From: an uncultured bacterium
GTDB lineage: Bacteria; UBA8481
DNA: 64,000 nt
Reading direction: 5' to 3'
NCBI GenBank assembly: GCA_964548165.1
Contig: CAZJQD010000007.1
Coordinates: 25,665-89,664 of the forward strand
A program made the translations under genes and the position numbers. Positions 2,635-26,873 of this stretch are shown here, one piece after another; within the stretch, counting starts at the first letter, position 1; every line of letters begins with the position of its first letter. Below the pieces are notes generated by a model, which ran no database searches, was not told the DNA's origin, and worked only from the letters and a program-made list of their open reading frames with translations.

Positions 2635-5600
2635 ATGACGTCGCTCGTGAACAGTAAACGGGAGGAGCCGGGACCGTGGTTCCGTCCCTGGATCCCCGCT
2701 CTCCTCATCGGCATCATTCTCCTTCTCACCGCCGCGGGCTACGCGGCGTTGCGCTACCTGGAACCTCGAGCCCTTGCGCTGGTCACCCGTGAGCTCGGCG
2801 CGGCGGCTGGGCGCGATGTGCAGGTCGAGGGATTTCGCCTCGCGTTGCCCGTGCGCGTCGACCGGATCGTCATTGCCGGCGACGGCATCATTGATTCGCA
2901 ACCCCTGCTCGTCCTCTCCGATGTCACCGCATGGCCGGACGTCTCGTCCCTGTTGCGGTTTCAACCCCGCGTCGGCCTCCTGCAGGCCGAGAGCGCCGTC
3001 CTTCGCCTGAGGGAAGAACGAGGCAACTGGAGCTCGAGGGGCGCGTTCACGGCGCCGGCGCCGGAGGTTTCCGCGATCGCCACGCTCTCGCTGCCGAACC
3101 TGCTTCTGCAGGTGGAGACCCGTGGCCGCGCCTACGAGCGCCTGCTCCGCATCAACCTGGACCTGGAGGGTCGGGGCGCTTTCACGCTCTTCTTCCACGG
3201 TGAGGAGGCGCACGGCCGCGTTCACTTCTCGGGCGCCGGCCCGGGCGCCACCTACCGGCTCGACGTCGCGCTGGATCAGTTGCCGGAGCAGCTGGAGAAG
3301 GCGGAACGGATCACGGTCACGGGCAATTACCAGGTCGACAGCCAGCTCGTGGATTTCGCCGTCGACGGCGCCCTGATGGGCAAGGAGGCCCGGATCTCCG
3401 GCCGCGTCCGCTTCGACACCCAGCGGATCCAGACCGAGACGGGCGCCTGGAAGTGGGGCGATCAGTCCGGCCGCGTGCTCGTCTCGTATGACGACCGGCG
3501 GGATCGCCGCATCGACGTCCTCACGGTCGGCCGCGTCACCTTCCCCCTGCCGATGGCGTTCCTGCGGTCGGAACCCCTGACGAGCGGGACCATCCACGTC
3601 GACAAGGTAAGCCTGAGTGGACCGTTGAACGGCCCGTGGCAGGTGAACGCTCACGTCGTCGGGGACAACCTCGAGGCGCAGGGAGCGATGGACCTGGTGG
3701 ACGGACAGATCGACGGGGAGGTCACCCTGGACGTCCATGCCAGCCGAGCCGTGAGGCTGGTGCATTCCCGCGCCAAGGTCCGCTTCGCGCACGCGCGAAG
3801 CGCCGGCTTCGAGGCGCGAGACGCGGATCTCTCGCTCGAGGCGACACCCCGCGCCGTCGTGGTGTCGGGTCGCGCCCGCGCGCTCGGGGGTTCCATCACC
3901 GCGCGCGACGTCCGGGTCGCTCTCGGCGAAGACGGACAACCGGAATCGATCCGCGGGCATCTTGCGCTCGACGAGCTGGACGGGCGAGAGCTCGCGGGAG
4001 TGACCGGCGACGTCGTGTTGCGAAATGTGACGGGAAACTACGACGTGGACGCCTGGCGCTCCCGCAACGGTTGGAAGCTCCATCGCGCCGACGGATTCAC
4101 CGAGCTCATCGAGGGGACGTGGCGCGGGGAGCCGTTCGCGGTCTCGCAAGCCCACATCATCGCCCGGGGCCAGCCCGGCGAGGCCGGCAGTGTCTTTTCG
4201 TTCAACGGCTACGTCCGCATCTTCGAGGGCCGGGGCCGCATCCGTGCCGACATCGAGGGCCGGGACATGGTGGACGCCTGGATGGAAGTGCACGAGGTCG
4301 ACCTCGCCGCCGCCAACCGGGTCTTTCACAATGCGCGCCTCGCCGCGATCGCGCGCCACGTGGATCGCGTGAGCATGGCTGGTCGCCTGCGATTCGCGAA
4401 TGACGAGAACGGTGACTCCGGCTTCGTCTTCGACGGTTCCATCAACTCGAACGGGCTCGGCATCGAGGTCTCCTCGGACGCGGCGTTCGGATCCGAACCG
4501 GACTCCAGCGCCCAGCCCGCTCCTTCCGCACCCGCCGCGCCCACAGGCCCCGTCGACTCTCCCGCGAGCTCAGCCGCCGGCTCAGCCGCCGGCTCAGCCG
4601 CCGGGTCGGCGATTTCGCCGGGAGACCAGGCTTGGACGATCGAAGAGGAGCGAGCCGGGGGAGGCGGCAATGACGAGGAAAGAGCCGACGCCGACGCGGC
4701 GCGGCCGCGGTCCCGCGCGCTCAAGGCTCGGGCCGGCGAGCCGCGCAGAGACCTGCCGAGGATGCCGTCCGTCGAGGAAGCCGGGCTCAGCACCATGCTC
4801 GATCTCATCAGCATCTTCCGGCTCGACGGACTGCCCATGCAGATCCGGGCGCGAGGACGCATGCGCATCGGGGGCGAGAACGATCCGGTCCGGATGAGCG
4901 GCCTGGAACTGGCTATCGACACGGATCGCACGATCCTCTGCGTCGACACCGCCACCTGGTATGAAAACCGCCTGGTGGCCCACCTGAGGATCGAGCGCAT
5001 CGATGCCGAGCACCTGCGCATCGCGGCGCGGCACCTGGCGCCGAACCCCCTGACCGAATCCCTCCCCTTGCGTGGCGCGCTCAGCGGCGACGTCCTCCTC
5101 GAGCGCGACAGCGCGAGCTTCTACGCCAGTATCGGCATCCATGGCGATCTCACGCTCCGGGACAGCCCCCTGGTCTTCAACACGGTGGGGACGGTGACGG
5201 ACAAGGGGCCGGACCTGCGTGTCGAGATCGGCACGATCGGAATCGATGCCCTGCACCAGAGTTTCGCCGACCTCAACTCCCAGATGGACCGGAACACCAT
5301 GAAACTCTCGGGAACCGCCGGCGTCACCCTCACCATGACCGATGCCTGGGATTCCATGATGATCGTCGGCAATGCCTCGTTCCGCGATGCCGGGGTACGA
5401 TTTCCCGCCGATTCCATCGCCGCGCTCGGTATCAACGGCAACCTGACATTCCGGGTCCGCAAGGGCCGGCTTCAGCCCTCTGAGCTCCTGCCCAACGCGG
5501 CGCCCATCACGTGCGCCAGGCTCACCTACAACGACGTCGTCGTTGAGCGCATCCACGCCCTGGCACGATTCAACGAGAAGTCCCTGCTCCTGGAATCGAT

Positions 5601-6192
5601 GACCTTCATCCTGGCCGGCGGGCGAGGCACGGGGGGATTCACGATCGACTTCCCGGCCTGGGACCAACCGCGCACGGCCTTCTTCGGCCGCGTCAGGGAT
5701 TGCAACCTCGAAATCGTCTACCGGCAGATGCAACCCTTCGCCGGAAATCTCACGGGCAGCGCGTCGGCCGAGGTCTCTCTCCTGATGGACAAACGGGACT
5801 TCCAGCGGCTGGAGGTGACCGGCACCGCGCGCAACGGCGTCATCAGCACGAGCCTCCTCTCGAGCGTCATCGAGCGGATGGACAGCGGCATGGTCCGCAA
5901 TTCGCTCGAGTCCCTGGCTGACTGGAAGTACGATTCCGCCTCGTTCCAGGCTCGCTACAGGCCGAACACCTACAGCCCCTTCGAAGCCGAGGGGCTCTTC
6001 CTGGACGCGAAGAAGACCGCCGAAGTCGTCATGGCGCTCTCGATCGTCGGCAACGTCTACCCGTTCCACCGCGCCCAGATCCTGCACTTGCCGACGCCGT
6101 TCGCGCGCATCGGCGTTCCCCTTCAACTCCAGACGCCCAACATGCCGCTCCGCCTGACCCTCTACCGCGTCGGACGCAAGATCACCCGCTAG
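2635..6192 (+). CDS. AsmA-family / TamB-like outer-membrane biogenesis protein (N-terminal TM anchor, about 1185 aa)
   Basis: ATG at 2635 (MTSLVNSKREEPGPW...), then one TM helix (PWIPALLIGIILLLTAAGYAAL), then a long beta-rich periplasmic region. There is a low-complexity SAAGSAAGSAAG / acidic segment in the middle and an AsmA-like C-terminal region. The gene is divergent from the ABC exporter. The family call is from overall architecture and is not certain. Confidence 0.5.
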   Translation: MTSLVNSKREEPGPWFRPWIPALLIGIILLLTAAGYAALRYLEPRALALVTRELGAAAGRDVQVEGFRLALPVRVDRIVIAGDGIIDSQPLLVLSDVTAWPDVSSLLRFQPRVGLLQAESAVLRLREERGNWSSRGAFTAPAPEVSAIATLSLPNLLLQVETRGRAYERLLRINLDLEGRGAFTLFFHGEEAHGRVHFSGAGPGATYRLDVALDQLPEQLEKAERITVTGNYQVDSQLVDFAVDGALMGKEARISGRVRFDTQRIQTETGAWKWGDQSGRVLVSYDDRRDRRIDVLTVGRVTFPLPMAFLRSEPLTSGTIHVDKVSLSGPLNGPWQVNAHVVGDNLEAQGAMDLVDGQIDGEVTLDVHASRAVRLVHSRAKVRFAHARSAGFEARDADLSLEATPRAVVVSGRARALGGSITARDVRVALGEDGQPESIRGHLALDELDGRELAGVTGDVVLRNVTGNYDVDAWRSRNGWKLHRADGFTELIEGTWRGEPFAVSQAHIIARGQPGEAGSVFSFNGYVRIFEGRGRIRADIEGRDMVDAWMEVHEVDLAAANRVFHNARLAAIARHVDRVSMAGRLRFANDENGDSGFVFDGSINSNGLGIEVSSDAAFGSEPDSSAQPAPSAPAAPTGPVDSPASSAAGSAAGSAAGSAISPGDQAWTIEEERAGGGGNDEERADADAARPRSRALKARAGEPRRDLPRMPSVEEAGLSTMLDLISIFRLDGLPMQIRARGRMRIGGENDPVRMSGLELAIDTDRTILCVDTATWYENRLVAHLRIERIDAEHLRIAARHLAPNPLTESLPLRGALSGDVLLERDSASFYASIGIHGDLTLRDSPLVFNTVGTVTDKGPDLRVEIGTIGIDALHQSFADLNSQMDRNTMKLSGTAGVTLTMTDAWDSMMIVGNASFRDAGVRFPADSIAALGINGNLTFRVRKGRLQPSELLPNAAPITCARLTYNDVVVERIHALARFNEKSLLLESMTFILAGGRGTGGFTIDFPAWDQPRTAFFGRVRDCNLEIVYRQMQPFAGNLTGSASAEVSLLMDKRDFQRLEVTGTARNGVISTSLLSSVIERMDSGMVRNSLESLADWKYDSASFQARYRPNTYSPFEAEGLFLDAKKTAEVVMALSIVGNVYPFHRAQILHLPTPFARIGVPLQLQTPNMPLRLTLYRVGRKITR

Positions 6193-6208: not shown

Positions 6209-7243
6209 TCAGGAAACCGCCAGGGAACATCCCTTCCTCGGGGATCCCTTGAGCCGCCCCTCGATGACCAGTCTCCCCTCCGTGTTCCAGTGCGCCAGGT
6301 CCGCGGTCAGGAGCCCCAGGCTCGACTGCCAATTCGCGAGATCCCAGAGGGCGACAATTCCGCGGGGAGCATCTTCGAGCGTCTCCGGATCGAGAATTCG
6401 CACGCGCGTCCAAGGCGCCGAAGCGAACCCGCGCCGCGCCGGTGTCACCGGTGAGTTACCGTCCTCCATGCCGCCGATACGTTCCCAGAGCGGCGAGCTG
6501 AGCTCGCACATGCCGTACTCGCCGATGATGCGTTCCGTCCCCACGCCGAAGACAGCTTGCAGGCCGGCATGGAGTTCCTCCCGCGTGACCTCGCGCGTTC
6601 TCCCCTTGAATCCGCCAGTCTCGACGATCACGGAACCCGCGGGCAATGGGTCGCGAACGCCGCTCTCGATGAGCGGGACGTACGCAAAGGCAGGGCCAAT
6701 CACCAGGACGGGAGTCGTCGCGTCCGCACCGCCTTGCGGGGCCAGGTCCTGCTTCAATGCTTCAATCATCGATGCCAGCGACGACTCGGGATTATCGGGC
6801 ATGAGCGAACGCACGCGCCAGCCGGGGCGACCTGCTTGGTCCTCACGCGCCGGCTCCTCCAGAGCCCAGCGGGCTCCCGCCAGGCACGAGGCGCGGTAGA
6901 CGGACAGGTCGCGGTGCCAGTGTCGGCCCCGCGCCTCCCTCGTCGTTCCGCTCGAACGAAAGACCCCCGTGGCCTTATCGATCGGCCAGGCGAAGATCTC
7001 GTGCTCGCCGAAGAGCGCGACAGGGACGGCCGGTATGTCTCGCCAGCTGCGAACCACGGGCGGGGCGAGGCGGGCAACCACGGGGATGCGCGACGCTTGC
7101 CAGGCATGAATGATCGGCGCCAAGGCGTCAAACTCCCGCTCCATGGCGGCGGCGTCCTGCGTCCAACCTCGGGAAATGAAGGCGGTCAGCCGGTCAAGCC
7201 AGGGCGGCAAGTGCGTCCCCGAGAATCGACAAGCCTTCGTCAA
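6209..7243 (-). CDS. LuxE-family acyl-protein synthetase (adenylate-forming)
   Basis: Four stretches line up with Vibrio LuxE: FRSSGTTREARGRHWHRDLS (LuxE FTSSGTNG...ARDRLS), VIVETGGFKG (IITGGGWK), RVRILDPETLEDAPRG (ARALDPETLKPVPDG) and C-terminal KGCSLAVS (KGCALSL). The ORF start overlaps the upstream aminotransferase by 50 nt. An alternative start is the internal ATG (MEREFD) near 7144. Confidence 0.7.
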   Translation of the reverse strand: MTKACRFSGTHLPPWLDRLTAFISRGWTQDAAAMEREFDALAPIIHAWQASRIPVVARLAPPVVRSWRDIPAVPVALFGEHEIFAWPIDKATGVFRSSGTTREARGRHWHRDLSVYRASCLAGARWALEEPAREDQAGRPGWRVRSLMPDNPESSLASMIEALKQDLAPQGGADATTPVLVIGPAFAYVPLIESGVRDPLPAGSVIVETGGFKGRTREVTREELHAGLQAVFGVGTERIIGEYGMCELSSPLWERIGGMEDGNSPVTPARRGFASAPWTRVRILDPETLEDAPRGIVALWDLANWQSSLGLLTADLAHWNTEGRLVIEGRLKGSPRKGCSLAVS

Positions 7244-8441
7244 GCGCGGCGGTGTCGATGGTCAAGGGCGGCATGATCATCACCGTCGCCCCGTTGACGC
7301 CGTCCGCAAGCACAAGGAGTCCCGCGGCGAGCGACCGTTGCACGACCGCCTGGGCGGCGGCTCCATCACGACAGGGAATGCCAACAAGTAGGCCTCGACC
7401 GACGGGTGCGAAGGCCTTGAGACGCTCCATCACACTCGCTGCCGCCGCATCCGCGCCGACACGCACGGCGTCCGAGGTCAGCAATTCCAGGGAGGCTAAC
7501 GCGGCCGCGCAACCAACGGGATGGCCGAGGAACGTCGCCGTATGAATGGCCTCACCCGTGGACTCCGGCCATGCCTCCATCACTTCCCCTCGTCCGATGC
7601 AGGCCGAGAGCGGCCAGCCGCCACCCAGGGCCTTTCCCGCGCAGATGATGTCGGGCTCGAGACCATACGCCCACGAAGCCCAGGTCTCGCCCGTGCGCCC
7701 CAGGCCCGTGAGAATCTCATCGGCGATCACCAGCGCGCCGGCCGCATGCGCTCTCTCGGCGACCGCCGGCAACCAACCCGCAGGAGGCACCCGCGCGCCG
7801 CCGCGGCCCTGCACCGGCTCCAGGATGACCGCACCAACATCGCCCGTCGCCAGCGCGGCCTCGAGGGCCCGAAGCGAGGCGGTACCATCCTCTTCGGGCC
7901 ACGGCACGAATCGCGCGAAGCGTCCCGATCTCGCGGCGAACGGCTCGCGAAACTCCCGGCGCCAGGTCACGTCCATGGCGGTTCCGATGAGCCCGTGGTA
8001 GGCGCCCTCGAACGCCAGCACGGCGGGGCGTCCGGTACGAAGGAGCGCGGTCTTGAGCGCAGCCTCGACGGCATCGGACCCATTCAAGCCGAGGATGGTG
8101 CGCACCGGCCAGGGAAAGAGCGAAGCAAGACGCTCGAGAAGCTCCACCTTCACCACGGGCGGATGCACATCCCCCAGTCCGTGGGGAAGAAGGCCTCCCT
8201 GCGCGGCGGCGGCGGCGGCGACCTGAGGATTCGCATGCCCCAGGGCAGCCACGCCGAAGCCGGAGGTGAAGTCGAGATAGCGGCGCCCTGCGGCGTCCCA
8301 CACCTCGGCGCCGCGAGCGCGTTGCCAGAAGATGGGCCATCCCGGGGCTACAAAGGTGAGGTTCCGCGACTCGACGGCCCTCAACCGGAGCGCCAGGAGC
8401 GCGTTTGGATCCGTCCCCGCGCTCGCCTTGTCAGTGGTCAC
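7194..8441 (-). CDS. class III (acetylornithine / omega-type) PLP-dependent aminotransferase
   Basis: Motifs ADEILTGLGRTG and the catalytic-lysine context CAGKALGGG, plus N-terminal YLDFTSGFGVAALGHANP. There is an ATGA overlap with the upstream PLD gene. Confidence 0.8.
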   Translation of the reverse strand: MTTDKASAGTDPNALLALRLRAVESRNLTFVAPGWPIFWQRARGAEVWDAAGRRYLDFTSGFGVAALGHANPQVAAAAAAQGGLLPHGLGDVHPPVVKVELLERLASLFPWPVRTILGLNGSDAVEAALKTALLRTGRPAVLAFEGAYHGLIGTAMDVTWRREFREPFAARSGRFARFVPWPEEDGTASLRALEAALATGDVGAVILEPVQGRGGARVPPAGWLPAVAERAHAAGALVIADEILTGLGRTGETWASWAYGLEPDIICAGKALGGGWPLSACIGRGEVMEAWPESTGEAIHTATFLGHPVGCAAALASLELLTSDAVRVGADAAAASVMERLKAFAPVGRGLLVGIPCRDGAAAQAVVQRSLAAGLLVLADGVNGATVMIMPPLTIDTAALDEGLSILGDALAALA

Positions 8442-9559
8442 CGGTCCGCGGAAAGCTCCGGCTGCGCGGCATCCCAGAGCGCATGGAAATAGTCGCGGAA
8501 CTGGCCGGCGACCCGGGGATCCGTCACGAGGAAGTTGAGCTCGTGGTAGCGGCGAAATGCCCCGAACCCCCAGTTCGTCGATCCCATGAGGGCGAGCCGG
8601 TCGGTGATGAGCAGCTTCGTATGCGAGGTGATCTCCATCGGATCACGCCGAATGCGGACCCCCCCGGAACGCAGCACGTCGACGACCTCGTTATTGAAGG
8701 CATTTCCTTCCTGGTTGTAGTCCGACTCCTCGACGATGGCCCGGACCGGGCGGCCCGCACGCGCCCGACCGCTCACCGCCAGGATCGCGGCCGAGGACGG
8801 CGATTCCGGGGACTCGGCGTACCAGCGAGCGGCATACAGGTGGAGATCGATCGAGTCGGACTCGGCAATGGCTGTCATCGCGACCGTCTCGTAGGCGCGG
8901 TCACAGACCACCGTGATGCCGTTGCTGGTGACCGGCTCGATCACGGCGTCGTCATCCGGCTTCTCCCAGAGCGCCGCGTAGTAGCGCTCCAGGGCGCCCG
9001 CGATGGCCGGGTCGTGGACAAGAAGGTTCGACTCGTTGTTTCGTTCCAGGGACGCGTCGGACCAGTTCGTCGATCCGGCCAGCACCCACTCGCCGTCGAC
9101 GAGGACCATCTTGGTGTGCGTGCGCTTACGCGGGGAATCGGCGCGAGCGGTGACGCCGAGCCGGACGAGATGCTCGACCGTGGTCATCGACCGGTCAGAC
9201 TCCTCGTCGACGAGAACGCGGACCTTGACGCCTCGGGCCGCGGCCGCGACGAGCGCCTCCTGGATGAGGCGCGTGGATCGGCCGTAGACGAAGAGGAACT
9301 GGGAGACATCGATGCGCGAGCGAGCGCCGTTGATGAGCGAGAGGACGGCAGGAAGATACTCGCGGTTGTTGCAGGCGCGCGTGAGCCCCGTCTCGGCGGC
9401 GACGGTCGCGGCGGACAGGCCCGGCGGGAGGGTCGGCGCCGCGATCGCGGGCCGAGCGGCGACGGCTTCATGCGAAGCTTGCGTTCCACCGCACGCGGCC
9501 AGGACAAGGCAGATGCCGAAAATTCCCAATCTCATGGTGTCAGGCCGCCACATTGCCAC
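8438..9559 (-). CDS. phospholipase D / cardiolipin-synthase-like lipoprotein (two HKD motifs)
   Basis: Two HxK(x4)D(x6)GSxN motifs: HTKMVLVDGEWVLAGSTNWS and HTKLLITDRLALMGSTNWG. Lipoprotein signal MRLGIFGICLVLAAC. The likely start is at M9 (about 9535) rather than 9559. Confidence 0.75.
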   Translation of the reverse strand: MAMWRPDTMRLGIFGICLVLAACGGTQASHEAVAARPAIAAPTLPPGLSAATVAAETGLTRACNNREYLPAVLSLINGARSRIDVSQFLFVYGRSTRLIQEALVAAAARGVKVRVLVDEESDRSMTTVEHLVRLGVTARADSPRKRTHTKMVLVDGEWVLAGSTNWSDASLERNNESNLLVHDPAIAGALERYYAALWEKPDDDAVIEPVTSNGITVVCDRAYETVAMTAIAESDSIDLHLYAARWYAESPESPSSAAILAVSGRARAGRPVRAIVEESDYNQEGNAFNNEVVDVLRSGGVRIRRDPMEITSHTKLLITDRLALMGSTNWGFGAFRRYHELNFLVTDPRVAGQFRDYFHALWDAAQPELSADR

Positions 9560-9591: not shown

Positions 9592-10326
9592 CTACATCCT
9601 CCCGAGGATGCGACCGGCACGGCCCTCCGTGAATCGCGATCCATCGTTGGGACGATGCCGGAGCGGGGACGGCAGGACGGCCGCGAGCCGCGCCGCCTGT
9701 CCCCAGGAAACCCGGGAGGAGGAGACGCGAAACCAGGCCTGGGACGCCGCCTCCGCGCCGTAGATCCCGTCACCCCACTCGATCACGTTGAGGTAAATCT
9801 CGAGAATCCGATCCTTGGGAAGGAGAAGCTCCATCCAGACGGTGAGATAGATCTCCACGCCCTTGCGAATCGCCTTGTCGTAGATCGTCACTCCCTCCCA
9901 GAGAAACAGGTTCTTGACCAACTGCATCGAGATGGTCGAGGCGCCGCGCGCGCGCTCCCCGTCCTGGCCCTCCTCGAAGGCTTTCTCGGCCTCCACCATG
10001 TCGACGCCCCAGTGCCGGTAGAACCGCCCGTCCTCGGCGGCCACCACGGCGCGGCGCAGGCGCGGCGATATCTCACCCAGGGCCCGCCACTCCATGCGCT
10101 TGTCGTAGGGACGCCAATCCACCAGGGCGGTGATGCGGCGCTGGGCCTGGAGCGAGGTCGTCGGTGGATCGATCCACCGGAGCGGCAGGAGGAGCGCCGG
10201 TGGAACGAGGACAACCAGGAGAACGAAGGCTCCCACGACCTGGAGGATTTCGCGCGCGATCCTCGCCACGCGTCCGCGCCTTCGCCCCCGGGATGCCGCG
10301 CGCGGATGAGGACCAGCGTCCGTCAT
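9592..10326 (-). CDS. mtgA: monofunctional biosynthetic peptidoglycan transglycosylase
   Basis: GT51 motifs EDGRFYRHWGVD, GASTISMQLVKNLFL and RILEIYLNVIEWGDGIYG, with an N-terminal TM anchor. The protein aligns with E. coli MtgA along its length. Confidence 0.8.
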   Translation of the reverse strand: MTDAGPHPRAASRGRRRGRVARIAREILQVVGAFVLLVVLVPPALLLPLRWIDPPTTSLQAQRRITALVDWRPYDKRMEWRALGEISPRLRRAVVAAEDGRFYRHWGVDMVEAEKAFEEGQDGERARGASTISMQLVKNLFLWEGVTIYDKAIRKGVEIYLTVWMELLLPKDRILEIYLNVIEWGDGIYGAEAASQAWFRVSSSRVSWGQAARLAAVLPSPLRHRPNDGSRFTEGRAGRILGRM

Positions 10327-10383: not shown

Positions 10384-11043
10384 CTACGGCTTTTTCATCC
10401 AACTGTTGTTGGGCCCCTGGATCCATGTGCCCGAGGCCGCCATGGTATGGCGGACATACGCAAACTCCTTGGCGACGTCCTCCATCCGGTAGCCCTTCTG
10501 CCGGACGATCTCCACGAAGAGCGTTCGACGATCGACGTTCTCGTCATTGAGCACCGGACCATCCTCGGCCGCGGGAAACTCGAAGGCGAAGTCCTCGAAG
10601 CCCGAGGTGCCGTTCGGTTGCTTGAGGATGCCATTGTTGGCCTCGCCGGCGACTTCCCTCTTCAAGGAATCATTGACGCGGGTGATCCGGCCCTGCCGGC
10701 GCTGCATGACGCGGACCACGGTCTCGGAGGTTTCGATGGCGCGGAGGTCGGGGCGGGCCGTGGCGTCGGCATCGGACGGAGCGCCGGCCGCGGCCACCTG
10801 GAAGGCGCCCAGGGCGACGGGGCGGACGGAGGTCGGAGCAGGGCGCGAGGAGATCGTGATCGTCATCGTGCTCCAGTCGAACTTGGCCCAGTCGTCGTTG
10901 CCGCTGAGCGATGACTCGAGGGCGAAGATGTCCGAACGCAGGTCGGCGAACTTGACGATGATGGTTTGCGTCGGGAGACAGCCGGTCGTAATGAGCGCGA
11001 CAAACGACAGGCAGGTTATGAATAGGGGCATGCGCCGCATCAT
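10384..11043 (-). CDS. hypothetical lipoprotein
   Basis: The real start is at the MM pair (ATG 11043/11040) giving MMRRMPLFITCLSFVALITTGC, a lipobox-type signal. The upstream part of the track ORF is Arg/Cys-rich junk. There is no recognisable family. A U8 tract follows the stop on the minus strand. Confidence 0.5.
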   Translation of the reverse strand: MMRRMPLFITCLSFVALITTGCLPTQTIIVKFADLRSDIFALESSLSGNDDWAKFDWSTMTITISSRPAPTSVRPVALGAFQVAAAGAPSDADATARPDLRAIETSETVVRVMQRRQGRITRVNDSLKREVAGEANNGILKQPNGTSGFEDFAFEFPAAEDGPVLNDENVDRRTLFVEIVRQKGYRMEDVAKEFAYVRHTMAASGTWIQGPNNSWMKKP

Positions 11044-11310
11044 GAATTCCTTTCTGCCCTCTTGGACCCGGGGCACGGGGGAAAGTTCACACAGATACTG
11101 CGAATATAACACATTGTCGACGTGATGTCGCGGATCGACGTGAAAAAATACAGAAGAAAATGGTCGCGCTCCCCCGCGCGATCGACTTTGGCAAAGTTTG
11201 AAAAATGAAGAGCTCGCGGCACGTGCTCGTGAGCGACAAACTAGAGGACAGCGATGGTACATGCGTGGGTACAAGCTCGTGGGGATAAGAGGCGGAAATG
11301 CCCCCGTTTC

Positions 11311-11339: not shown

Positions 11340-11350
11340 TTGTGGTTCTC

Positions 11351-14041
11351 ATGACCGCCGACTATCGCGACACCGTACGGGTTCCCGACAGCCCGGTTCC
11401 CATGCGAGCGAACCTCCCGGAACTCGAACCGAAAATGGTCGCTCGGTGGCAGGAACTCGACCTCTACGCCCGGCTCCGCCAGGCACGCGTCGGCCGCCCC
11501 ATCTTTCTCCTGCACGATGGCCCCCCTTACGCCAACGGCGAACTGCACATGGGCCATGCGCTCAACAAGACACTCAAGGACATCGTCGTCCGGCATCGCG
11601 CGCTCCGCGGCTTCGACACGCCCTTCGTCCCCGGCTGGGACTGCCACGGGCTCCCGATCGAGCACAACGTCATGCGCGAGCTCGGAGACAAGGCCGCAAG
11701 CCTCTCGCAGGTCGAGATCCGTAAGCTCTGCCGCGCCTTCGCGCGCCGCTACGTCGAGATCCAGCGAGAGGGGTTCCGCCGGCTCGGGTGCATCGGTCAC
11801 TGGGAGAATCCCTACCTCACGCTCGACGACGAGTTCGAGGCGCGCATCCTCGAGGCCTTCGGCACGCTCCACGAGCAGGGCTGCATCTATCGCGGCCTCA
11901 AGCCCATCCACTGGTGCCCGTCCTGCCGCACCGCGCTCGCCGCCTCGACGGCCGAGGCCGAATACGGCGACCACGACACCGACGCCATCACCGTCGCCTT
12001 CCCCTCCGTCGAGGACCCGAACCTCGCCATCCTCATCTGGACCACGACGCCCTGGACCCTGCCCGCCAACGTCGCCGTCGCGGTCCGCGCCGATCTCGAG
12101 TACGTCACGGTCCAGGTCGGCGAGCGTCGGTTCCTGCTGGCTGAGGCTCTCCTTCCCGCCGTGTCGACCGCGGCTGGCTGGTCCCATCCCGAGATCATCG
12201 CCCGGGTACAAGGATCCGCGATCGAACACCGCAAGTTCCGCCACCCGTTCCTCGACCGCGAGGTTCCCGCCATCCTCGGCGAGTTCGTCACGACGGACGC
12301 CGGGACCGGCGTCGTCCATATCGCGCCCGGGCACGGCGTCGAGGACTACCACGCGGGCCTCAAGTACAAGCTCCCCATCCTGGCCCCGGTCGATGATCGC
12401 GGCCGGCTGACCGAGGAGGCCGGGGTCTTCCGCGGCATCGGTGTCTTCGAGGCCAACCCGCTCATCATCGGCCTGCTCAAGGACCGCGGCATGCTCATCC
12501 ACGCCGAGACGATCCGCCATTCGTATCCGCACTGCTGGCGGTGCAAGCATCCGGTCATCTTCCGCGCCACCCGCCAGTGGTTCATGAACGTCGATCACGC
12601 GAGCGGCGGCAAGACGCTCCGCGAGATCGCGCTCGCCGCCGTCGACGCCGTCCAGTGGATCCCGAACTGGGGCCGCGACCGTTTCGCCGGCACGGTGAGA
12701 GAACGCCCCGACTGGTGTCTCTCGCGCCAGCGATCCTGGGGAGTCCCGATCCCGGCGCTCGTCTGCGACGATTGCGGCCACTCCGTGGTCGACGCTTCGC
12801 TCCAGGCCGAGGTCACGGCCCTCGCTCGCGCCGGCCGGCTCGACGAGTGGTTTGCGGAGGATCCCGCGCCGCGATCCTGCACGTGCGGCAAGCCGCTCCG
12901 ACGCGAGCGCGACATCCTCGACGTCTGGTTCGACTCGGGCGTCTCGTGGTACGCCACCGACATGTTCGACGGCGGCTCGCGAAGAACCGGCGAACCCCCG
13001 ATCGCCGATCTCTACCTCGAGGGATCCGACCAGCACCGAGGCTGGTTCCAATCCTCGCTCTGGCCCTCGTTGGCTCTACGAGGCGTCCCCCCGTACCGCG
13101 CCGTCCTCACCCACGGTTTCATGCTCGACGGCGACGGCAAGGCCATGCACAAGTCCGCGGGCAACGTCATCGCGCCGCAGGACATCATGAAGAAGTACGG
13201 CGCCGACATCATCCGGCTCTGGGTCGCCTCGGAGAACTACCGCGAGGACGTGCGACTCTCGTACGTCATCCTCGATCACGTCGCCGATACCTACCGCAAG
13301 ATCCGCAATACCTGGCGCTTCCTGGCCGGCGTCGCCAAGGACCTGCCGCTCGACGTCCAGGTTCCCGTCGCCGGCCGCCCCGAGCTCGACCGCTGGGCGC
13401 TCTCGGTCCTGGGCCGCTGGTTGGCCTCGGTCTCGCGCGCCTACGACGAGTACGCCTTTCACGAGGTCTACCGGATGACGCTGGAGCTTATCACCGGCGA
13501 GCTCTCGGCCCTCTACCTCGACGTCATCAAGGATCGCCTCTACTGCGACGCTCCCGATGGCGCCGAACGCCGGGCCGCCCAGGCGACATGCCGTGAGATC
13601 CTCTCCGTGACGGTCCGGGCGCTGGCACCCATCCTGCCGTTCACGACGGACGAGGTCTGGGGACACGCCAACATCGACAAGGGAGCTGCCGCTGACTCCA
13701 TTCACCTTTCGGACTGGCCCGCGTCCCTGCCCGTCGACGAGGAACTCCTCGCGCGATTCGCCCCCCTGTTGGCGGCGCGCGGCGAGATCCTCAAGGCCCT
13801 CGAAGACCAGCGCGCGGCCGGGAAGATCAAGAAGAGCCAGATGGCGCGCGTGACCACGCGGTTCCAGGGCGACCTCGAGACGCTCCGGCTCCTCACCCAG
13901 GTCGCCGAGCTCGTGCCCGGAGACGTGCTCATGGTGGAGCCGACCCAGCTCCCCAAGTGTCCGCGCTGCTGGCGGCACCTGCCCCTGGAGGGAGAACTCT
14001 GCGCCCGGTGCGACACCGTCGTCGCGGCGCTGGCGCGCTAG
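11351..14041 (+). CDS. ileS: isoleucine--tRNA ligase
   Basis: N-terminus DYRDTVRVPDSPVPMRANLPELEP matches the IleS consensus (E. coli [21 protein letters not shown]). HMGH motif, KMSKS-like AMHKS, and C-terminal zinc ribbon CPRCWRH...CARCD. The start is the ATG at 11351; the track's GTG at 11342 lies before the predicted TSS. Confidence 0.9.
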   Translation: MTADYRDTVRVPDSPVPMRANLPELEPKMVARWQELDLYARLRQARVGRPIFLLHDGPPYANGELHMGHALNKTLKDIVVRHRALRGFDTPFVPGWDCHGLPIEHNVMRELGDKAASLSQVEIRKLCRAFARRYVEIQREGFRRLGCIGHWENPYLTLDDEFEARILEAFGTLHEQGCIYRGLKPIHWCPSCRTALAASTAEAEYGDHDTDAITVAFPSVEDPNLAILIWTTTPWTLPANVAVAVRADLEYVTVQVGERRFLLAEALLPAVSTAAGWSHPEIIARVQGSAIEHRKFRHPFLDREVPAILGEFVTTDAGTGVVHIAPGHGVEDYHAGLKYKLPILAPVDDRGRLTEEAGVFRGIGVFEANPLIIGLLKDRGMLIHAETIRHSYPHCWRCKHPVIFRATRQWFMNVDHASGGKTLREIALAAVDAVQWIPNWGRDRFAGTVRERPDWCLSRQRSWGVPIPALVCDDCGHSVVDASLQAEVTALARAGRLDEWFAEDPAPRSCTCGKPLRRERDILDVWFDSGVSWYATDMFDGGSRRTGEPPIADLYLEGSDQHRGWFQSSLWPSLALRGVPPYRAVLTHGFMLDGDGKAMHKSAGNVIAPQDIMKKYGADIIRLWVASENYREDVRLSYVILDHVADTYRKIRNTWRFLAGVAKDLPLDVQVPVAGRPELDRWALSVLGRWLASVSRAYDEYAFHEVYRMTLELITGELSALYLDVIKDRLYCDAPDGAERRAAQATCREILSVTVRALAPILPFTTDEVWGHANIDKGAAADSIHLSDWPASLPVDEELLARFAPLLAARGEILKALEDQRAAGKIKKSQMARVTTRFQGDLETLRLLTQVAELVPGDVLMVEPTQLPKCPRCWRHLPLEGELCARCDTVVAALAR

Positions 14042-14044
14042 GTC

Positions 14045-14644
14045 GTGACTGCCGCTGCCACGTCACCGGCCCCGATGACTTCCGCCAGCATGAAGGCCCC
14101 GGGTTGGTTGCTGGCGATCACGTGGGTCGCGGTCCCCGTCCTTGTCGCCTTTGACCAGTGGACCAAGAACTTCATCGTCACCTACTACTACCTCTGGGAG
14201 ATCGACCCCATCATCGGGAACATCGTGAGATTGACGCGCGTGCATAACCAGGGCGCGGCATTCGGCGTCCTGCAGGAGTGGCCGGGGCTCTTTCGCAACC
14301 TCACGGGCTTCGCCATCGTCGCGCTTACCGCGCACAAGGCCCTGACCCGGAACCGCACCGCTCTCTACCATGCCGCGCTTGGCCTCGTGCTCGCCGGCGC
14401 CGTCGGCAACTTCATCGACCGCATCCGCTACAATTACGTCGTCGACTTCATCCAGGTCGGATTCAACGGCTGGTACTGGCCCTCGTTCAACGTTGCGGAC
14501 TCGGCCATCTCCGTGGGCGTCGTCCTCCTGCTCTGGGGCTCCCTGGCGATGCCCGAACCCGAGGACACACCTATCACCGACGAACCCATCACGGATGGGG
14601 AACCCATCACGGATGGGAAATCCGACGCAGAAGCGAGGCCCTAG
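14045..14644 (+). CDS. lspA: lipoprotein signal peptidase II
   Basis: Motifs DQWTKN, NQGAAFG, GNFIDR and FNVADSAISVG, in the conserved ileS-lspA synteny. GTG start 3 nt after the ileS stop. The C-terminal 30 aa (TPITDEPITDGEPITDGKSDAEARP) is encoded by palindromic repeat units. Confidence 0.85.
   Translation: MTAAATSPAPMTSASMKAPGWLLAITWVAVPVLVAFDQWTKNFIVTYYYLWEIDPIIGNIVRLTRVHNQGAAFGVLQEWPGLFRNLTGFAIVALTAHKALTRNRTALYHAALGLVLAGAVGNFIDRIRYNYVVDFIQVGFNGWYWPSFNVADSAISVGVVLLLWGSLAMPEPEDTPITDEPITDGEPITDGKSDAEARP
14585..14617. repeat. tandem pair of 15-bp palindromes CCCATCACGGATGGG (period 18 bp)
   Basis: Perfect inverted-repeat arms CCCATC/GATGGG with a 3-nt spacer, two copies, inside the 3' tail of lspA and 30-60 nt upstream of the lgt start. 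The same pair recurs at 56956-56988. Confidence 0.7.
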
Positions 14645-14646
14645 CC

Positions 14647-15408
14647 ATGTTCCCCGTGCTCGTAGACATTCCCGGGTTTCCCATCCACACCTACGGCATC
14701 CTCCTGGCGCTCGGGTTCGCCGCCGCCCTGGTCACGCTCATCTCCGTCGGCCGCGTCGCGGGCTTCCGCAGCGAAGACCTGGGCGACCTCGCGCTGGTGG
14801 CGCTCGTCAGCGGACTGGTGGGTGGCCGCCTCCTCTACGTGATCGTCGAGTGGGACCAGTTCGCGGGAAATCTCTCGCAGATCGTCCTCAGGCGCGACGG
14901 CTTCGTCTTCTACGGGGGCCTGCTCGTGGCCGCGCCCGTCACCATGTTCTTCCTGCGCCGCCGCGGGCTCCCCCTCGCTCCCCTCGCCGATGTCGTCGCG
15001 CCCGCGCTCGCGCTTGGCCACTCCATCGGGCGACTCGGCTGTTTCGCGCAGGGTTGCTGTTACGGCCGCGCCTCCGCCTGGGGCCTCACCTTCCACGAGG
15101 ACTCCGCGGCATCGGTCGCCAACGGCGGACTCCCGGTCATCCCCGTCCAGCTCTATGAATCGCTCCTTCTCCTGGGCCTCTTCGGCCTGCTGCTTTCCCT
15201 GAGGGGTCGCTTCAAGTTTCCTGGCGCCCTGATGTGCGTGTACCTCGCCGTGTACGCCGTGATCCGCTTCAGCCTCGAGACGCTCCGCGCCGATGACCGC
15301 GGCTTCTACCTCGGACCGCTCTCGGTTTCGCAGTTAATCTCCATCGGGCTCCTCGCGCTCGCCGGCATCCTCGCCTGGAGGCTCCGCTCACGCCAACCCA
15401 TATCGTAG
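14647..15408 (+). CDS. lgt: prolipoprotein diacylglyceryl transferase
   Basis: Lgt signature GRLGCFAQGCCYG and multiple TM helices. ATG at 14647, 2 nt after the lspA stop. The track ORF 14278-15408 is an upstream out-of-context extension. Confidence 0.85.
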   Translation: MFPVLVDIPGFPIHTYGILLALGFAAALVTLISVGRVAGFRSEDLGDLALVALVSGLVGGRLLYVIVEWDQFAGNLSQIVLRRDGFVFYGGLLVAAPVTMFFLRRRGLPLAPLADVVAPALALGHSIGRLGCFAQGCCYGRASAWGLTFHEDSAASVANGGLPVIPVQLYESLLLLGLFGLLLSLRGRFKFPGALMCVYLAVYAVIRFSLETLRADDRGFYLGPLSVSQLISIGLLALAGILAWRLRSRQPIS

Positions 15409-16439: not shown

Positions 16440-17267
16440 ATGAGAATCACTCACAACGAGCTATCAGCCTTTTCCCTCCGGCAGGTTAAATCCGCCGAGA
16501 AGGACGAACTCTCAACCAAGGAACAATTGTCCTCGGGCCGGCGCATCAATCACGCCGGCGACGACGCCGCGGGCCTGGCCATCTCCGACCGCCTCGCGGC
16601 GCGGCACCGCGGCATCCACCAGGCCTGGCGCAATGCCTACGACGCCCAGGCCCTGGTGCGCACCGCGGAAGGCGCCTACGAGGGCGTCAACGAGATGCTC
16701 CAGCGCGTCCGCGCGCTCGCCATCCAGGCCTCCAATGACACCCTCATCACCAGCGACCGGCAGAACATCCAGCTCGAGGTCACCGCGCTCCTCGAGGAGA
16801 TCGATCGGCAGTCGGACACGGTCGAGTACAACGGCAAGAAGCTCTTCGCGCCGACCACGGACCCGGAAGGCCAGGAATACACCTTCCAGGTCGGCTCGGA
16901 CAGGAATGAAACCCTGCGGGTCGATGTCGCGCCCCTGAACGCCACCTGGCTCGGCGTCGAGGACCTCGACGTGAGCTCCCGCGTCTCGGCCGATTCCGCC
17001 ATTGCGGCGGTGGATGGCGCTCTCAATCGCCTCAACGGCCAGCGCGCCGATGTCGGCTCGGTCCAGAACCGGCTCGACGAGGTCATGATGTTCACCGGCA
17101 TCGCCCGCGAGAACACGATCGCGGCGGAGACCAAGATCCGCGACGCCGACTTCGGCCCGACGATCACCGACTATACCAAGCAACAGATCCTGCGCAGTAC
17201 CCGCCTGAGCGCCCTGGCCCAGGCCAATCTCCAACCCGAGTCCGTCCTCCAGCTCCTCAACGCGTAA
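16440..17267 (+). CDS. fliC: flagellin (short, 275 aa, minimal variable domain)
   Basis: N-terminus MRITHN...LSSGRRINHAGDDAAGLAISDRL and C-terminus GSVQNRLDEV...IRDADFGPTITDYTKQQILRSTRLSALAQANLQPESVLQLL match conserved flagellin D0/D1 segments. There are no other flagellar genes in the window. Confidence 0.85.
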   Translation: MRITHNELSAFSLRQVKSAEKDELSTKEQLSSGRRINHAGDDAAGLAISDRLAARHRGIHQAWRNAYDAQALVRTAEGAYEGVNEMLQRVRALAIQASNDTLITSDRQNIQLEVTALLEEIDRQSDTVEYNGKKLFAPTTDPEGQEYTFQVGSDRNETLRVDVAPLNATWLGVEDLDVSSRVSADSAIAAVDGALNRLNGQRADVGSVQNRLDEVMMFTGIARENTIAAETKIRDADFGPTITDYTKQQILRSTRLSALAQANLQPESVLQLLNA

Positions 17268-24462: not shown

Positions 24463-25827
24463 CTACTTTTCGATCCGGAACTTCTCCAGCCGATAGAGAA
24501 ACGTGTGGCGCGTCATGCCCAGGAGGCGGGCCGCCGCGGCCTGGTTGCCGTTCGTCCGGCGGAGCGCCTCGTCGAGGAGATACTTCTCCAGCGCGAAAAA
24601 GTCGATGCCGGCCTCCGGGAGTCGAAAGCCGTAGTCGGCGGGCGCGGCCGGCGCTCGTTCGCGCACCGATTCCGGGAGATCCTCCAGCCCGATGGGACGC
24701 GCTTGCGGCGTGCCGGCGCCCGAGAGGATCAGGACGCGCTCGAGGACGTTCAGGAGTTCGCGGACATTGCCCGGCCACGCGGCCGAGCGCAATGCGGCCA
24801 TGGCCTCGGGATCGATCGGATGAGCGCCCAGGCGATCGCGCGCGATGACCTCGATATCCTCCGTTCTTTCCCGCAAGGGTGGCACGGCGATGGGAAAGAC
24901 CTGGAGGCGATAATAGAGATCGGCACGGAAGCGGCCGGCGGCGACGTTCCTCTCGCAGTCGGCGTTCGTGGCGGCAATGACGCGGACGCTGACCGTGCGC
25001 GACTTCGTCGCCCCGATCGGCGTCACCGCCCGATCCTCGAGCACGCGAAGCAACTTGGCCTGCGCGGGTAGCGGAAGGTCCCCGATCTCGTCGAGGAGCA
25101 GAGTGCCCCCATCCGCGCGGACGAAGACGCCGTCGTGATCGGACACCGCGCCGGTGAAGGCGCCGCGCCGATGGCCGAAGAGCTCGCTCTCGATGAGCTC
25201 CGAGGGAATGGCCGCGCAGTTGACGGCCACGAAGGGTCCGGTCGAGACCGCGGACAAGGCGTGGATCCGCCGCGCCACCAGCTCCTTGCCAACGCCGGTC
25301 TCGCCGGTCACCAGGACCGTCGTCGGCGTCGGCGCGACGCGATCGATCTGCGAGAGCACGTCGCGCATGGCGCGGGAATCGCCGAGAATGCGGTGTCGAT
25401 GGCTCAGCTCGGCGCGGAGGTGATCGACCTCGCCGCGGAGTCCCGCCAGCTCCGCCGCCTTCTCCAGGGTCACCAGGAGCCGCTCGGTCGTGACGGGCTT
25501 CTGCAGGAAATCGGCGGCCCCCTCGCGCACCGCCTCCACCGCCCGCTCGATCGAGCCATGCGCGGTCAGGACGATGACCGGCAGAAGCGGCCGAAGCTCC
25601 TTCAAGCGCGCCGTCAGCGCGAGGCCGTCCATGCCGGGCATCGCGAGGTCCGTGATCACGATCTGGATGGAGGCAAGGTCCGTCGCGAGGAGCGCGGAGG
25701 GATCGGCGAAGACGCGGACATGATGACCAGCCAGTTCCAGGCCAAGCGAGAGCGCTTCCCTGAGATTGGCATCATCGTCGACGAGAGCAATGTTCAGCGC
25801 GCGCCTCGCGCTCACGTCCGCCCCCAC
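24463..25827 (-). CDS. sigma-54-dependent response regulator (NtrC family: REC, AAA+, Fis HTH)
   Basis: REC domain with the phospho-acceptor aspartate (ITDLAMPGMDG). AAA+ motifs GETGVGKE, ESELFGH and the GAFTGA loop. C-terminal HTH (AAAARLLGMTRHTFLYRLEKF). Confidence 0.9.
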   Translation of the reverse strand: MGADVSARRALNIALVDDDANLREALSLGLELAGHHVRVFADPSALLATDLASIQIVITDLAMPGMDGLALTARLKELRPLLPVIVLTAHGSIERAVEAVREGAADFLQKPVTTERLLVTLEKAAELAGLRGEVDHLRAELSHRHRILGDSRAMRDVLSQIDRVAPTPTTVLVTGETGVGKELVARRIHALSAVSTGPFVAVNCAAIPSELIESELFGHRRGAFTGAVSDHDGVFVRADGGTLLLDEIGDLPLPAQAKLLRVLEDRAVTPIGATKSRTVSVRVIAATNADCERNVAAGRFRADLYYRLQVFPIAVPPLRERTEDIEVIARDRLGAHPIDPEAMAALRSAAWPGNVRELLNVLERVLILSGAGTPQARPIGLEDLPESVRERAPAAPADYGFRLPEAGIDFFALEKYLLDEALRRTNGNQAAAARLLGMTRHTFLYRLEKFRIEK

Positions 25828-26873
25828 GCGAGGACAAACCGGGCGCCGCCCAGGGGGGAATCGTCCACGGCGAGCCGCCAGCCGTGAGCGTCGGCGACAC
25901 CGCGAACGATGGCCAGTCCCAGGCCCGATCCGCCGGCCCGTCGTCCGACAAAAGGCTCGAAGACGGCATCGCGATCACCCGGCGCGATACCCGGACCCGA
26001 ATCCTCGATGAGCAACCGCTCGGCCTCGACGCGAACATGAACTTCCGACGGTATCGGCTCCGAGCGCGCCGTCTTCGACCCTGAGGTTTCCGCATCGTCG
26101 CGAGCTCGGGTCGGGCTTCCCTTTCCGTGGCGCGCCGCGGCGACGGCGTTCTGCAAGAGATTGCGTATGGCTCTCTCCGCCAGTCCCGGGTCCGCGGAGA
26201 TTCGGTCCGGCGCCCCGTCGACGTCGAGCGTGACGACGACGCCCGTGGCCGTCACGCGAAGAGCGGCAACCAGGCGCTCCACGAGCGGGGCCATCGCCAC
26301 GTTGACGCACCGAGCCTCGATCGGGCGGGCAAGATTGAGATAGTCACCCAACAGGGCCTCGATCCGATCGGCCTCCTCGGTCACGACATCGAGCAGGTGC
26401 GAGAGCCGATCGTCTCCCAATCGCGCGCGAACGGCCGGCGTTCCCAGCGCGCCGCCGGCCGCCGTGATCGTCTGGAGCGGATTGCGGACGTCGTGCGCCA
26501 ACATCGCGGCGAGCTCGCCCACCCTCGCCAGGTTGCGCTGGCGCGCCAGCTCGTCCGCGTCCCGGACGCGCCGATCCGTCAGCTCGCCGACCAAGCCGCC
26601 GACCAGCAGGTAGAAGCCGAACTCGGCCACGAGCGCCGACGAGGATCCGCCGTAGAGCGCGTGGTGCTGGTGATGGCTTCCCACGAGAAAGAAGGTGGGG
26701 AGGTAGGCGACGATGACGAGCACGGCGGCGCCGAGACCTCCGGTCCGCCCGAACCAGACGGCGGCCAGGAGGACGGGGATCGTGAGGAGGCGAAAGTGCA
26801 GGAAGTGCGTGGGATCGTCGTGGCCGATGAGCCCGTAATGAAGGAGAAGAACGAGGGCCCCAAGGCCGCCCAC
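25812..26873 (-). CDS. sensor histidine kinase (membrane; HisKA plus HATPase_c)
   Basis: Three N-terminal TM helices. H-box LAHDVRNPL, and G-boxes DSGPGI and GGSGLGLAI. The gene overlaps the response-regulator start by 16 nt. Confidence 0.85.
   Translation of the reverse strand: MGGLGALVLLLHYGLIGHDDPTHFLHFRLLTIPVLLAAVWFGRTGGLGAAVLVIVAYLPTFFLVGSHHQHHALYGGSSSALVAEFGFYLLVGGLVGELTDRRVRDADELARQRNLARVGELAAMLAHDVRNPLQTITAAGGALGTPAVRARLGDDRLSHLLDVVTEEADRIEALLGDYLNLARPIEARCVNVAMAPLVERLVAALRVTATGVVVTLDVDGAPDRISADPGLAERAIRNLLQNAVAAARHGKGSPTRARDDAETSGSKTARSEPIPSEVHVRVEAERLLIEDSGPGIAPGDRDAVFEPFVGRRAGGSGLGLAIVRGVADAHGWRLAVDDSPLGGARFVLAWGRT

Follow-up and report, generated by a model that had tools for sequence, protein, structure and literature searches.

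An aminotransferase–LuxE gene pair lacking LuxC in an uncultured bacterium: a possible variant of a widespread, putative acid-to-amine module

Introduction

Among described systems, the nearest counterpart of the gene pair considered here is the LuxC–LuxE system of luminous Vibrionaceae. Cryo-electron microscopy of this system (structure 7xc6; PMC9157457) traced the essentials of LuxE to a Lys238/Arg355 pair serving adenylation and thioesterification and to Cys364, situated in the segment 358-TRxxKGCxLS-367, in a protein that has no ANL C-terminal subdomain. This report concerns a LuxE-type gene of an uncultured bacterium (GTDB lineage UBA8481; assembly GCA_964548165.1, contig CAZJQD010000007.1, positions 25,665 to 89,664), which overlaps a gene for a class III aminotransferase (AT) and was analysed within a 64-kb stretch of DNA, the whole of which we call the window. 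The window protein shares with LuxE the truncated ANL architecture, the Lys/Arg pair, the KGCxL cysteine and a profile match from end to end, and in most of its relatives the adjacent gene encodes a LuxC homologue. The window, by contrast, has no LuxC, LuxD or luciferase, and the partner of its LuxE is an aminotransferase; the protein is also about 40 residues shorter than Photobacterium phosphoreum LuxE, with an internal deletion of about 25 residues and only five residues after the cysteine.

Beyond luminescence, we found LuxC and LuxE homologues noted in the literature only in flagellin glycosylation islands, and we found no description of an operon that combines AT, LuxE and LuxC – the arrangement referred to below as the triad. 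Both halves of the chemistry that a triad would perform have experimental precedent, though: the first half in the LuxCE complex (PMC9157457), the second in the pathways that make the tails of tambjamines. In the case of tambjamine YP1, TamA and TamH (PMC9594044) take an acid through ATP-dependent activation, a protein-bound thioester and a fatty aldehyde to a fatty amine, the last step being catalysed by an omega-transaminase with L-Glu as the donor. The Tam carrier is a phosphopantetheinyl acyl carrier protein (ACP) domain, and an AAR-like thioester reductase (TR) domain is fused to the transaminase (TA); in the window, the carrier would instead be LuxE's own cysteine, the genes are separate, the reductase is missing from the locus and no pyrrole or other natural-product genes lie nearby.

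The second precedent is the TabQ/TabJ/TabE/TabA set for tambjamine BE-18591 in Streptomyces (bioRxiv 10.1101/2025.08.11.669332), where a stand-alone reductase of the aldehyde dehydrogenase superfamily (TabE), which groups with LuxC, feeds a stand-alone omega-transaminase, much as is envisaged for the triads. Tab is the closest precedent for their LuxC-to-AT step, although its substrate is an acyl-ACP, it includes no LuxE, and the window has no reductase to set beside TabE.

A LuxE-family protein with an intact catalytic set

The product of positions 6209..7210 (minus strand; 333 residues) is, as judged from its sequence, a LuxE-family acyl-protein synthetase, that is, a truncated ANL adenylating enzyme. 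Taken alone, it scores 16.8 bits against the Pfam LuxE model (PF04443; cut-off 24.9) and matches no NCBIfam model. A profile built from it and 24 homologues, however, matches P. phosphoreum LuxE (7xc6_E) at 7.8e-33 over residues 38–370 of 373, compared with 2.8e-5 for PaaK; a close relative in a genome labelled Candidatus Hydrogenedentota (locus L127) clears the Pfam cut-off at 31.8 bits, and the relatives P0006-8 are flagged too. The motifs on which a sequence-only reading of the window had based the LuxE assignment (SSGTT, ETGGFKG, ILDPETL and KGCSLA) turn out to be conserved columns of the family alignment, and the assignment stands. The same reading had proposed profile searches for all three of its enzyme families: PF00202 (the AT) and PF13091 (a phospholipase D (PLD)-superfamily lipoprotein discussed below) match at 266.6 and 137.5 bits, whereas PF04443 falls short for the single protein.

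The catalytic set is complete. Lys202 (codon 6605..6607, in ETGGFK), Arg319 (6254-6256, in EGR) and Cys328 (6227..6229, in the C-terminal KGCSLA), all on the minus strand, align with Lys238, Arg355 and the acylated Cys364 of P. phosphoreum LuxE, and the family alignment shows conservation of 90% or more in the Cys328 column. The chain ends five residues past Cys328, without the ANL C-terminal subdomain. An AlphaFold model (pLDDT 89.8) finds its best fold match in PaaK1 (2y27), among ANL N-domains; chain E of 7xc6 being fragmentary, LuxE itself does not come up in the fold search, and PaaK and further ANL N-domains appear in its place. Identity as a PaaK/F390 synthetase, which the sequence-only reading had named as the alternative that would overturn its assignment, was nonetheless rejected, because of the far better profile match to LuxE, the Lys/Arg/Cys set and the missing C-terminal subdomain, to which the lack of any NCBIfam match can be added.

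Together with its nearest relatives – the window-type AT–LuxE loci, which we call the clade – the protein departs from other LuxEs in several respects. Clade LuxEs sit on a long tree branch, have the ~25-residue internal deletion in common and end in a tail of 4–8 residues after the cysteine that lacks a D/E-x-[LM]-L motif, while LuxEs of triads have a tail of at least 10 residues with this motif in all members. Tail length was considered as a marker of LuxC partnership and dropped, since Verrucomicrobial LuxEs encoded beside LuxC have five residues.

Nor do the clade LuxEs look like decaying genes, as they are about as well conserved within the clade as the AT (mean pairwise identity of 55.5% against 57.5%). 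Between clade and triads, LuxE identity is 36.5%, compared with 39.7% predicted from AT divergence. The shift in this test for relaxed constraint on LuxE amounts to only some three percentage points, was calculated from non-independent pairs and is no strong sign of a change in function; no decay is seen.

An aminotransferase subfamily with swapped arginines

Upstream of LuxE, positions 7194-8441 (minus strand, 415 residues) encode what is, on its domain match and conserved residues, a bona fide class III (omega-type), pyridoxal phosphate (PLP)-dependent aminotransferase, as the sequence-only reading had it: the match to PF00202 reaches 266.6 bits against a cut-off of 30.5, and Lys270 (the Schiff-base lysine; codon 7632-7634) and Asp241 align with K268 and D239 of GabT. 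The protein shares with GabT, ArgD and PuuE the fold and the Lys/Asp/Thr PLP residues (31–37% identity, E ~1e-50 to solved structures). At the same time, it falls below every NCBIfam equivalog cut-off (the best score is 228 bits against 457).

Where it parts from these enzymes is the substrate pocket. In GabT, Arg141 binds the distal carboxylate of GABA and Arg398 the alpha-carboxylate of glutamate or 2-oxoglutarate, with Glu211 gating Arg398. When the window AT is aligned with E. coli GabT and with structures of GabT and acetylornithine aminotransferase from the PDB, its residues at these three positions (141, 211 and 398) are Leu151 (codon 7989..7991), Arg213 (7803-7805) and Met388 (7278-7280), the last position holding Met or another small residue in the subfamily; in addition, a GEAIHT insertion precedes the conserved Thr. 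Since both carboxylate-binding arginines of GabT are replaced, the pocket suggests a substrate without a carboxylate, such as a lipophilic or aliphatic aldehyde or amine, and Arg213 probably holds the amino-acid donor.

This signature – Leu, Arg and a residue other than Arg at GabT positions 141, 211 and 398, with Lys/Asp/Thr kept – is common to all 25 ATs that are linked to LuxE and reach 40% identity, whether from the clade or from triads, and to all 120 of the best database homologues. The canonical residues persist in three ATs that are more distant and are encoded beside LuxE–LuxC. The window AT is 43–72% identical to LuxE-adjacent ATs from 30+ loci. With the signature common to clade and triads, the same type of substrate is expected in both.

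The arginine-swapped subfamily is not exclusively linked to LuxE, as one of its members, 52% identical to the window AT, stands alone in a 5-Mb contig (L129, 8001-9269), next to genes for a Na/Ca exchanger, pterin dehydratase and squalene/phytoene synthase.

The pair is conserved, outside the clade almost always together with LuxC

The clade is small. A search of 5.8 billion clusters returned about nine close relatives of the LuxE-like protein (48–64% identity), so that it is represented by only ~10 proteins; among the matches listed, genome contigs held no further member above 39% identity, and metagenome contigs none above ~40% over the full length. Eight distinct loci are available: the window (identical to L001), L002, L003, L004, L086, L087, L088 and L127/L128. 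An AT gene lies immediately upstream of LuxE in all eight, with overlaps of 1 to 62 nt or short gaps, and LuxC in none.

For a wider sample of LuxE homologues, at least 80 loci from genomes and 38 from metagenomes were drawn on, together with a few look-ups. Arrangements were counted in the 93 loci where LuxE is flanked by 1.5 kb or more on each side, the presence of LuxC being checked by Pfam in some of them. LuxE with LuxC is the most frequent arrangement (41/93), followed by the full triad (25/93) and by LuxE alone (19/93); AT–LuxE without LuxC accounts for the remaining 8/93, namely seven clade loci and one other locus, L029. Put differently, LuxC is directly adjacent in 25/26 of the AT-linked LuxE loci outside the clade that meet the same flank requirement.

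In all, AT–LuxE adjacency was seen in ~28 loci outside the clade, from Myxococcota, Spirochaetota, Verrucomicrobiota, Vulcanimicrobiota and other phyla. The triads, which turn up in cultured as well as uncultured groups, are known from Myxococcota (Minicystis rosea among them), Spirochaetales, Verrucomicrobiota and Vulcanimicrobiota, and from further lineages. Look-ups centred on the AT rather than LuxE led, outside the clade, to two AT–LuxE–LuxC operons and one lone AT. No fourth gene common to the triads was found, the Suf operon and other neighbours being a matter of lineage synteny.

The LuxE homologues of Bacteroidota (L084, 9965-10945, and L070, L073, L076, L078–L081 and L083) form a clade of their own, in which the C-terminal motif reads RGCN rather than (K/R)GCS and neither LuxC nor an AT is encoded nearby; that of Jejuia spongiicola is flanked by a Por-secretion-tail protein and a YHS-domain protein.

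No LuxC or other lux genes at the locus

The absence of LuxC and LuxD, already noted in the sequence-only reading, was confirmed in several ways. Searching the window by tblastn with the LuxC of a related locus gave no match, and a LuxC hidden Markov model (HMM) trained on 70 sequences gave no more than 8.6 bits for any of the six-frame open reading frames (ORFs) of the window and related loci. The same model reached 170–625 bits on LuxC-bearing loci, which formed part of its training set. Pfam scans of ~45 window ORFs detected no LuxC, LuxD, luciferase, aldehyde dehydrogenase or thioester reductase. Thus, there is no LuxC in the 64-kb window or in the seven related loci, and the window has no luxA, luxB, luxC, luxD or luxG.

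A LuxC-less acid-to-amine module?

The explanation we favour, tentatively and with a confidence that stops somewhat short of even, is that the translationally coupled AT–LuxE pair is a version, lacking LuxC, of a widespread but uncharacterised acid-to-amine module, AT–LuxE–LuxC, with the reductase unlinked or replaced. In the triads, a carboxylic acid would be converted into an acyl-AMP, then into a thioester on the LuxE cysteine (acyl-S-Cys), from there by LuxC with NADPH into an aldehyde and finally by the AT into a primary amine. In the organism studied here, the LuxE homologue – given its conserved Lys/Arg/Cys set – would adenylate a lipophilic, probably fatty, acid and acylate itself on Cys328 of the flexible KGCSLA tail. 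The thioester would then have to be reduced by an enzyme encoded outside the locus, which could be a LuxC at another site or a different thioester reductase; this is the weakest link of the scheme. The AT would aminate the resulting aldehyde, its amino-acid donor held by the relocated Arg. The pair would be co-transcribed with envelope genes: those for a YdbL-like lipoprotein and the peptidoglycan glycosyltransferase MtgA and, in three genomes, that for the PLD lipoprotein.

With an AT signature unchanged from the triads, and a LuxE that retains its catalytic residues and matches the AT in conservation within the clade, the pair appears to be functional, and the same pathway with its reductase elsewhere or replaced is the most economical reading. 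The sequence-only reading had raised the possibility that an activated acyl group or aldehyde is transaminated to an amine. The occurrence of the same AT subfamily in AT–LuxE–LuxC operons of many phyla speaks for this idea; its other half, an enzyme making the aldehyde, was not found at the locus.

Several observations weigh against the favoured explanation. The eight clade loci share no reductase candidate, and the 64-kb window contains none, so the key reduction step would rest on a gene not located within the loci examined. A second, unrelated AT–LuxE locus, L029 (9956-12479 of a metagenome-assembled genome (MAG) labelled 'delta proteobacterium', with pirin and serine dehydratase genes downstream), likewise has no LuxC, which suggests that LuxC-free operation may be real; its sister locus L059 does carry LuxC. 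Both families also occur singly – the AT in L129, LuxE in Bacteroidota such as L084. A neighbour-joining tree puts the clade on a deep, separate branch, on which a derived LuxC-less state is not distinguishable from an ancestral one. Finally, identity to true LuxE is low, and the substrate of the module is a prediction.

A less likely alternative: direct acyl transfer without LuxC

The main rival, which we consider unlikely, would dispense with the aldehyde as a product of the activated acid: the acyl-AMP or the acyl group on Cys328 would be attacked directly by a nucleophile, the simplest being an amine made by the AT, to give an N-acyl amide; this lipid or lipoamine might be meant for the envelope. 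Thioesters readily acylate amines, so the chemistry would permit this outcome. The absence of LuxC from every clade locus and from the window as a whole is what such a route would predict, L029 would be a second lineage working in the same way, and the operon partners of the pair are envelope proteins. The peculiarities of the clade LuxE (the long branch, the deletion, the short tail and the slightly greater divergence than that of the AT) could also be read as a change of role. Yet the short tails found beside LuxC in Verrucomicrobiota rob the tail of diagnostic value, the AT active-site signature is identical to that of LuxC-bearing triads – whose aldehyde substrate would here need another source – and we found no amide-forming activity of the LuxE family documented in the literature.

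A more specific form of this rival appears less probable again. Here, the clade LuxE would be a LuxC-independent, self-acylating acyltransferase which, with the arginine-swapped AT, makes an N-acylated amine lipid – a new route to an envelope aminolipid, beside the YdbL-like lipoprotein and an AsmA-like lipid transporter.

An improbable alternative: uncoupled genes

Improbable, in our view, is the absence of any functional coupling, with the AT and LuxE independent of each other and adjacent by phylum-level synteny, or with LuxE a non-functional remnant left behind by the loss of LuxC. Each gene family is indeed found alone elsewhere, and the whole region, including ileS, lspA, lgt, the DUF1318 gene and mtgA, is syntenic within the lineage. 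This would leave unexplained, however, why AT and LuxE are neighbours in at least five phyla although the flanking genes are otherwise unrelated, and why the two coding regions overlap; a remnant, for its part, would hardly have kept all catalytic residues and a degree of conservation within the clade like that of the AT.

The PLD lipoprotein: a third partner?

The PLD-superfamily lipoprotein encoded upstream of the AT (8438..9535, minus strand; 365 residues) matches PLDc_2 (PF13091) twice, at 137.5 bits, with both HKD motifs intact (HTKMVLVD...GSTN at residue 140 and HTKLLITD...GSTN at residue 305) and a lipobox, LVLAAC with Cys15, that is kept in all three orthologues. The sequence-only reading was therefore right about a lipoprotein with two HKD motifs. 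It had further suggested that LuxE, AT and this protein act as a trio that builds an unusual amino-lipid head group in the envelope; transphosphatidylation would then be the task of the PLD protein.

We regard such a trio as very improbable. Its attractions are the close apposition of the PLD and AT genes, whose stop and start share the letters GTGA in the window and overlap by 4 nt in L086, the two intact HKD motifs in an exported protein, and the presence nearby of further envelope-lipid genes (YdbL-like, AsmA-like, lgt/lspA). But the PLD gene is present in only 3/8 clade loci (window/L001, L002 and L086), is missing from L003, L087, L088 and L127/L128, and occurs in none of the other AT–LuxE loci, including all 80 genome loci outside the clade; the PLD protein was consequently rejected as an integral partner of the pair. 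The conserved unit is AT plus LuxE, not a trio with PLD. Moreover, signal peptides are lacking from AT and LuxE, while the PLD protein would be periplasmic.

Its affinities point away from lipid head groups as well. The best PDB match is SpPLD of Serratia plymuthica (7e0m, 5.7e-20), a secreted enzyme whose nuclease-like features were noted by the authors of the structure; Nuc, mitoPLD, NucT and PLD3 come next. Similarly to SpPLD and the Nuc/NucT-type PLD nucleases, the window protein is exported, falls into the range of ~370–390 residues and has two HKD domains with GS motifs (GS/GS); unlike the soluble, secreted SpPLD, it is a lipoprotein, and it belongs to no NCBIfam equivalog, scoring 58.6 against 281 for ClsB, a cardiolipin synthase, 68.9 against 297 for NucT and 74.2 against 133 for DrmC. 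Its resemblance is thus to the nuclease type (DrmC, NucT, Nuc, PLD3), and nothing was found to support the head-group proposal. Candidate substrates would be nucleic acid or phospholipid. A role as DrmC of a DISARM defence system was rejected, the similarity in PADLOC being of the generic PLD-domain kind, other DISARM genes being absent and the protein having a lipoprotein signal. Given its patchy distribution, we read the PLD gene as a probable lineage-specific insertion that would be accessory to the pair and no part of its chemistry.

The last alternative, a dispersed bioluminescence (lux) system with luxCDAB elsewhere, has LuxE family membership alone in its favour and is hardly credible with no luxA, luxB, luxC, luxD or luxG in 64 kb, an aminotransferase as the partner and homologues in hundreds of non-luminous uncultured lineages from soil and sediment.

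Organization of the locus

The pair closes a run of five minus-strand genes separated by short gaps or overlaps: those for a DUF1318 lipoprotein, MtgA, the PLD lipoprotein, the AT and the LuxE-like protein. As the sequence-only reading had stated, mtgA and another lipoprotein gene precede the three on the same strand. The former, at 9592..10326, encodes a monofunctional peptidoglycan glycosyltransferase (TIGR02070; the score of 202.2 bits exceeds the cut-off of 182.65); the latter, at 10384-11040, encodes a 218-residue DUF1318 (YdbL-family) lipoprotein (PF07027, 31.5 bits against a cut-off of 27), in which the lipobox (TTGC, followed by LPTQTIIV) is kept. Compared with the YdbL family, this protein has an extra N-terminal region of ~140 residues.

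A sigma-70-like promoter match (11103..11131, minus strand; 9/12 consensus positions and a TG extension) lies 5' of the DUF1318 gene, in the region that separates it from the divergent ileS; it is a predicted site, a match to the consensus. A sequence scan found no promoter-like or terminator-like sites between 6209 and 10384. With a promoter-like site just 5' of the first gene and no internal terminator-like site, a single operon for the five genes is plausible. GC content is ~0.65–0.70 across the region, with no compositional break, and neither Rfam families (at the gathering threshold) nor tRNA genes were found anywhere in the window.

Some gene boundaries needed correction. For LuxE, the best-supported start appears to be TTG 7210, in a frame that is open up to TTG 7243: it has a GGGGA Shine-Dalgarno sequence 5 nt upstream, it fits the MPPWLDRL N-terminus of two homologues, and the start called in L086 is at the matching position. 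The product, given as 344 residues in the sequence-only reading, would accordingly be the 333-residue protein described above, and the overlap with the AT stop shrinks from 50 to 17 nt. The public gene call, which begins at ATG 7144 and yields 311 residues, is too short, as it removes the family-conserved N-terminal helix PPWLDRLxAxIxRGW. The PLD protein most likely starts at ATG 9535, giving 365 residues in a frame open to 9559, and what had been reported as an ATGA overlap between the PLD and AT genes actually reads GTGA.

Upstream of the AT, the clade loci vary. The mtgA gene is found in L002, L003, L087 and L088, directly preceding the AT in the last three, and is absent from L127; in L127/L128 it is the DUF1318 gene that directly precedes the AT. 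The DUF1318 gene lies upstream wherever a clade contig reaches that far (L002, L003, L088, L127 and L128) and is the sole neighbour so constant. L127, the MAG labelled Candidatus Hydrogenedentota (GCA_003697085.1), also has the divergent ileS and nearby lgt/lspA in common with the window, which makes Hydrogenedentota the probable phylum of the window and of the clade.

Convergent to the operon is a gene for a protein of 1185 residues with an N-terminal membrane anchor (2635..6192, plus strand), after which comes an ABC transporter. Across four homologues, the protein gives weak, sub-threshold AsmA-like matches – to YdbH-like (19.2 bits), TamB and DUF748 – and is probably AsmA-like, of the YdbH/TamB type. 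The gene, which we count as context, is syntenic in L002, L003, L004 and L086, though not in L087 or L127. Together with the DUF1318 lipoprotein gene, it resembles a split version of E. coli ydbH-ynbE-ydbL (PMC11126948), of which YnbE was not looked for.

On the other side, the plus strand carries ileS, an ORF at 14045-14644 that is probably lspA by comparison with L127, and lgt (LGT domain; 14278-15408), the group spanning 11342-15408. Genes for lipoprotein maturation thus adjoin, in divergent orientation, an operon that encodes two lipoproteins; L127 is arranged likewise.

Further along the window, a lone flagellin gene (16440-17267, plus strand) lies between an unannotated ORF and pyruvate kinase, with no other flagellar genes in the window. 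A minus-strand ORF of 1850 residues (26906-32458), with genes for a histidine kinase and a sigma-54 response regulator immediately downstream (24463-26873), matches a double zinc ribbon near its N-terminus and TPR at its C-terminus, and nothing else. The Na/H-exchanger domain of a 900-residue ORF (38311-41013, plus strand) occupies residues 516–893, which implies either an over-called start in GC-rich DNA or a long uncharacterised N-terminal region; the preceding ORF of 716 residues (36296-38446, plus strand) has no Pfam match. Near the end of the window, a PHO4-family phosphate transporter gene is placed between two PhoU_div (DUF47) genes (60977-63340, plus strand), a duplicated regulator/transporter arrangement.

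Implications

What is new here is the LuxC-less variant, the widespread uncharacterised module to which it may belong and a distinctive AT subfamily, while the underlying chemistry is of a known kind; we consider this a good lead, though an unproven one. If the favoured explanation is true, AT–LuxE–LuxC would be a natural, compact route from acid to primary amine that uses an enzyme's own cysteine as the acyl carrier, of interest both to bacterial lipid biology and to biocatalysis, where cascades of carboxylic acid reductase and transaminase are now assembled artificially. The LuxE-linked ATs would then make up a large unnamed subfamily of class III enzymes, with the arginine swap as a clear specificity switch, and the LuxC-less clade would amount to a natural experiment on whether LuxE-type enzymes are able to work without the reductase.

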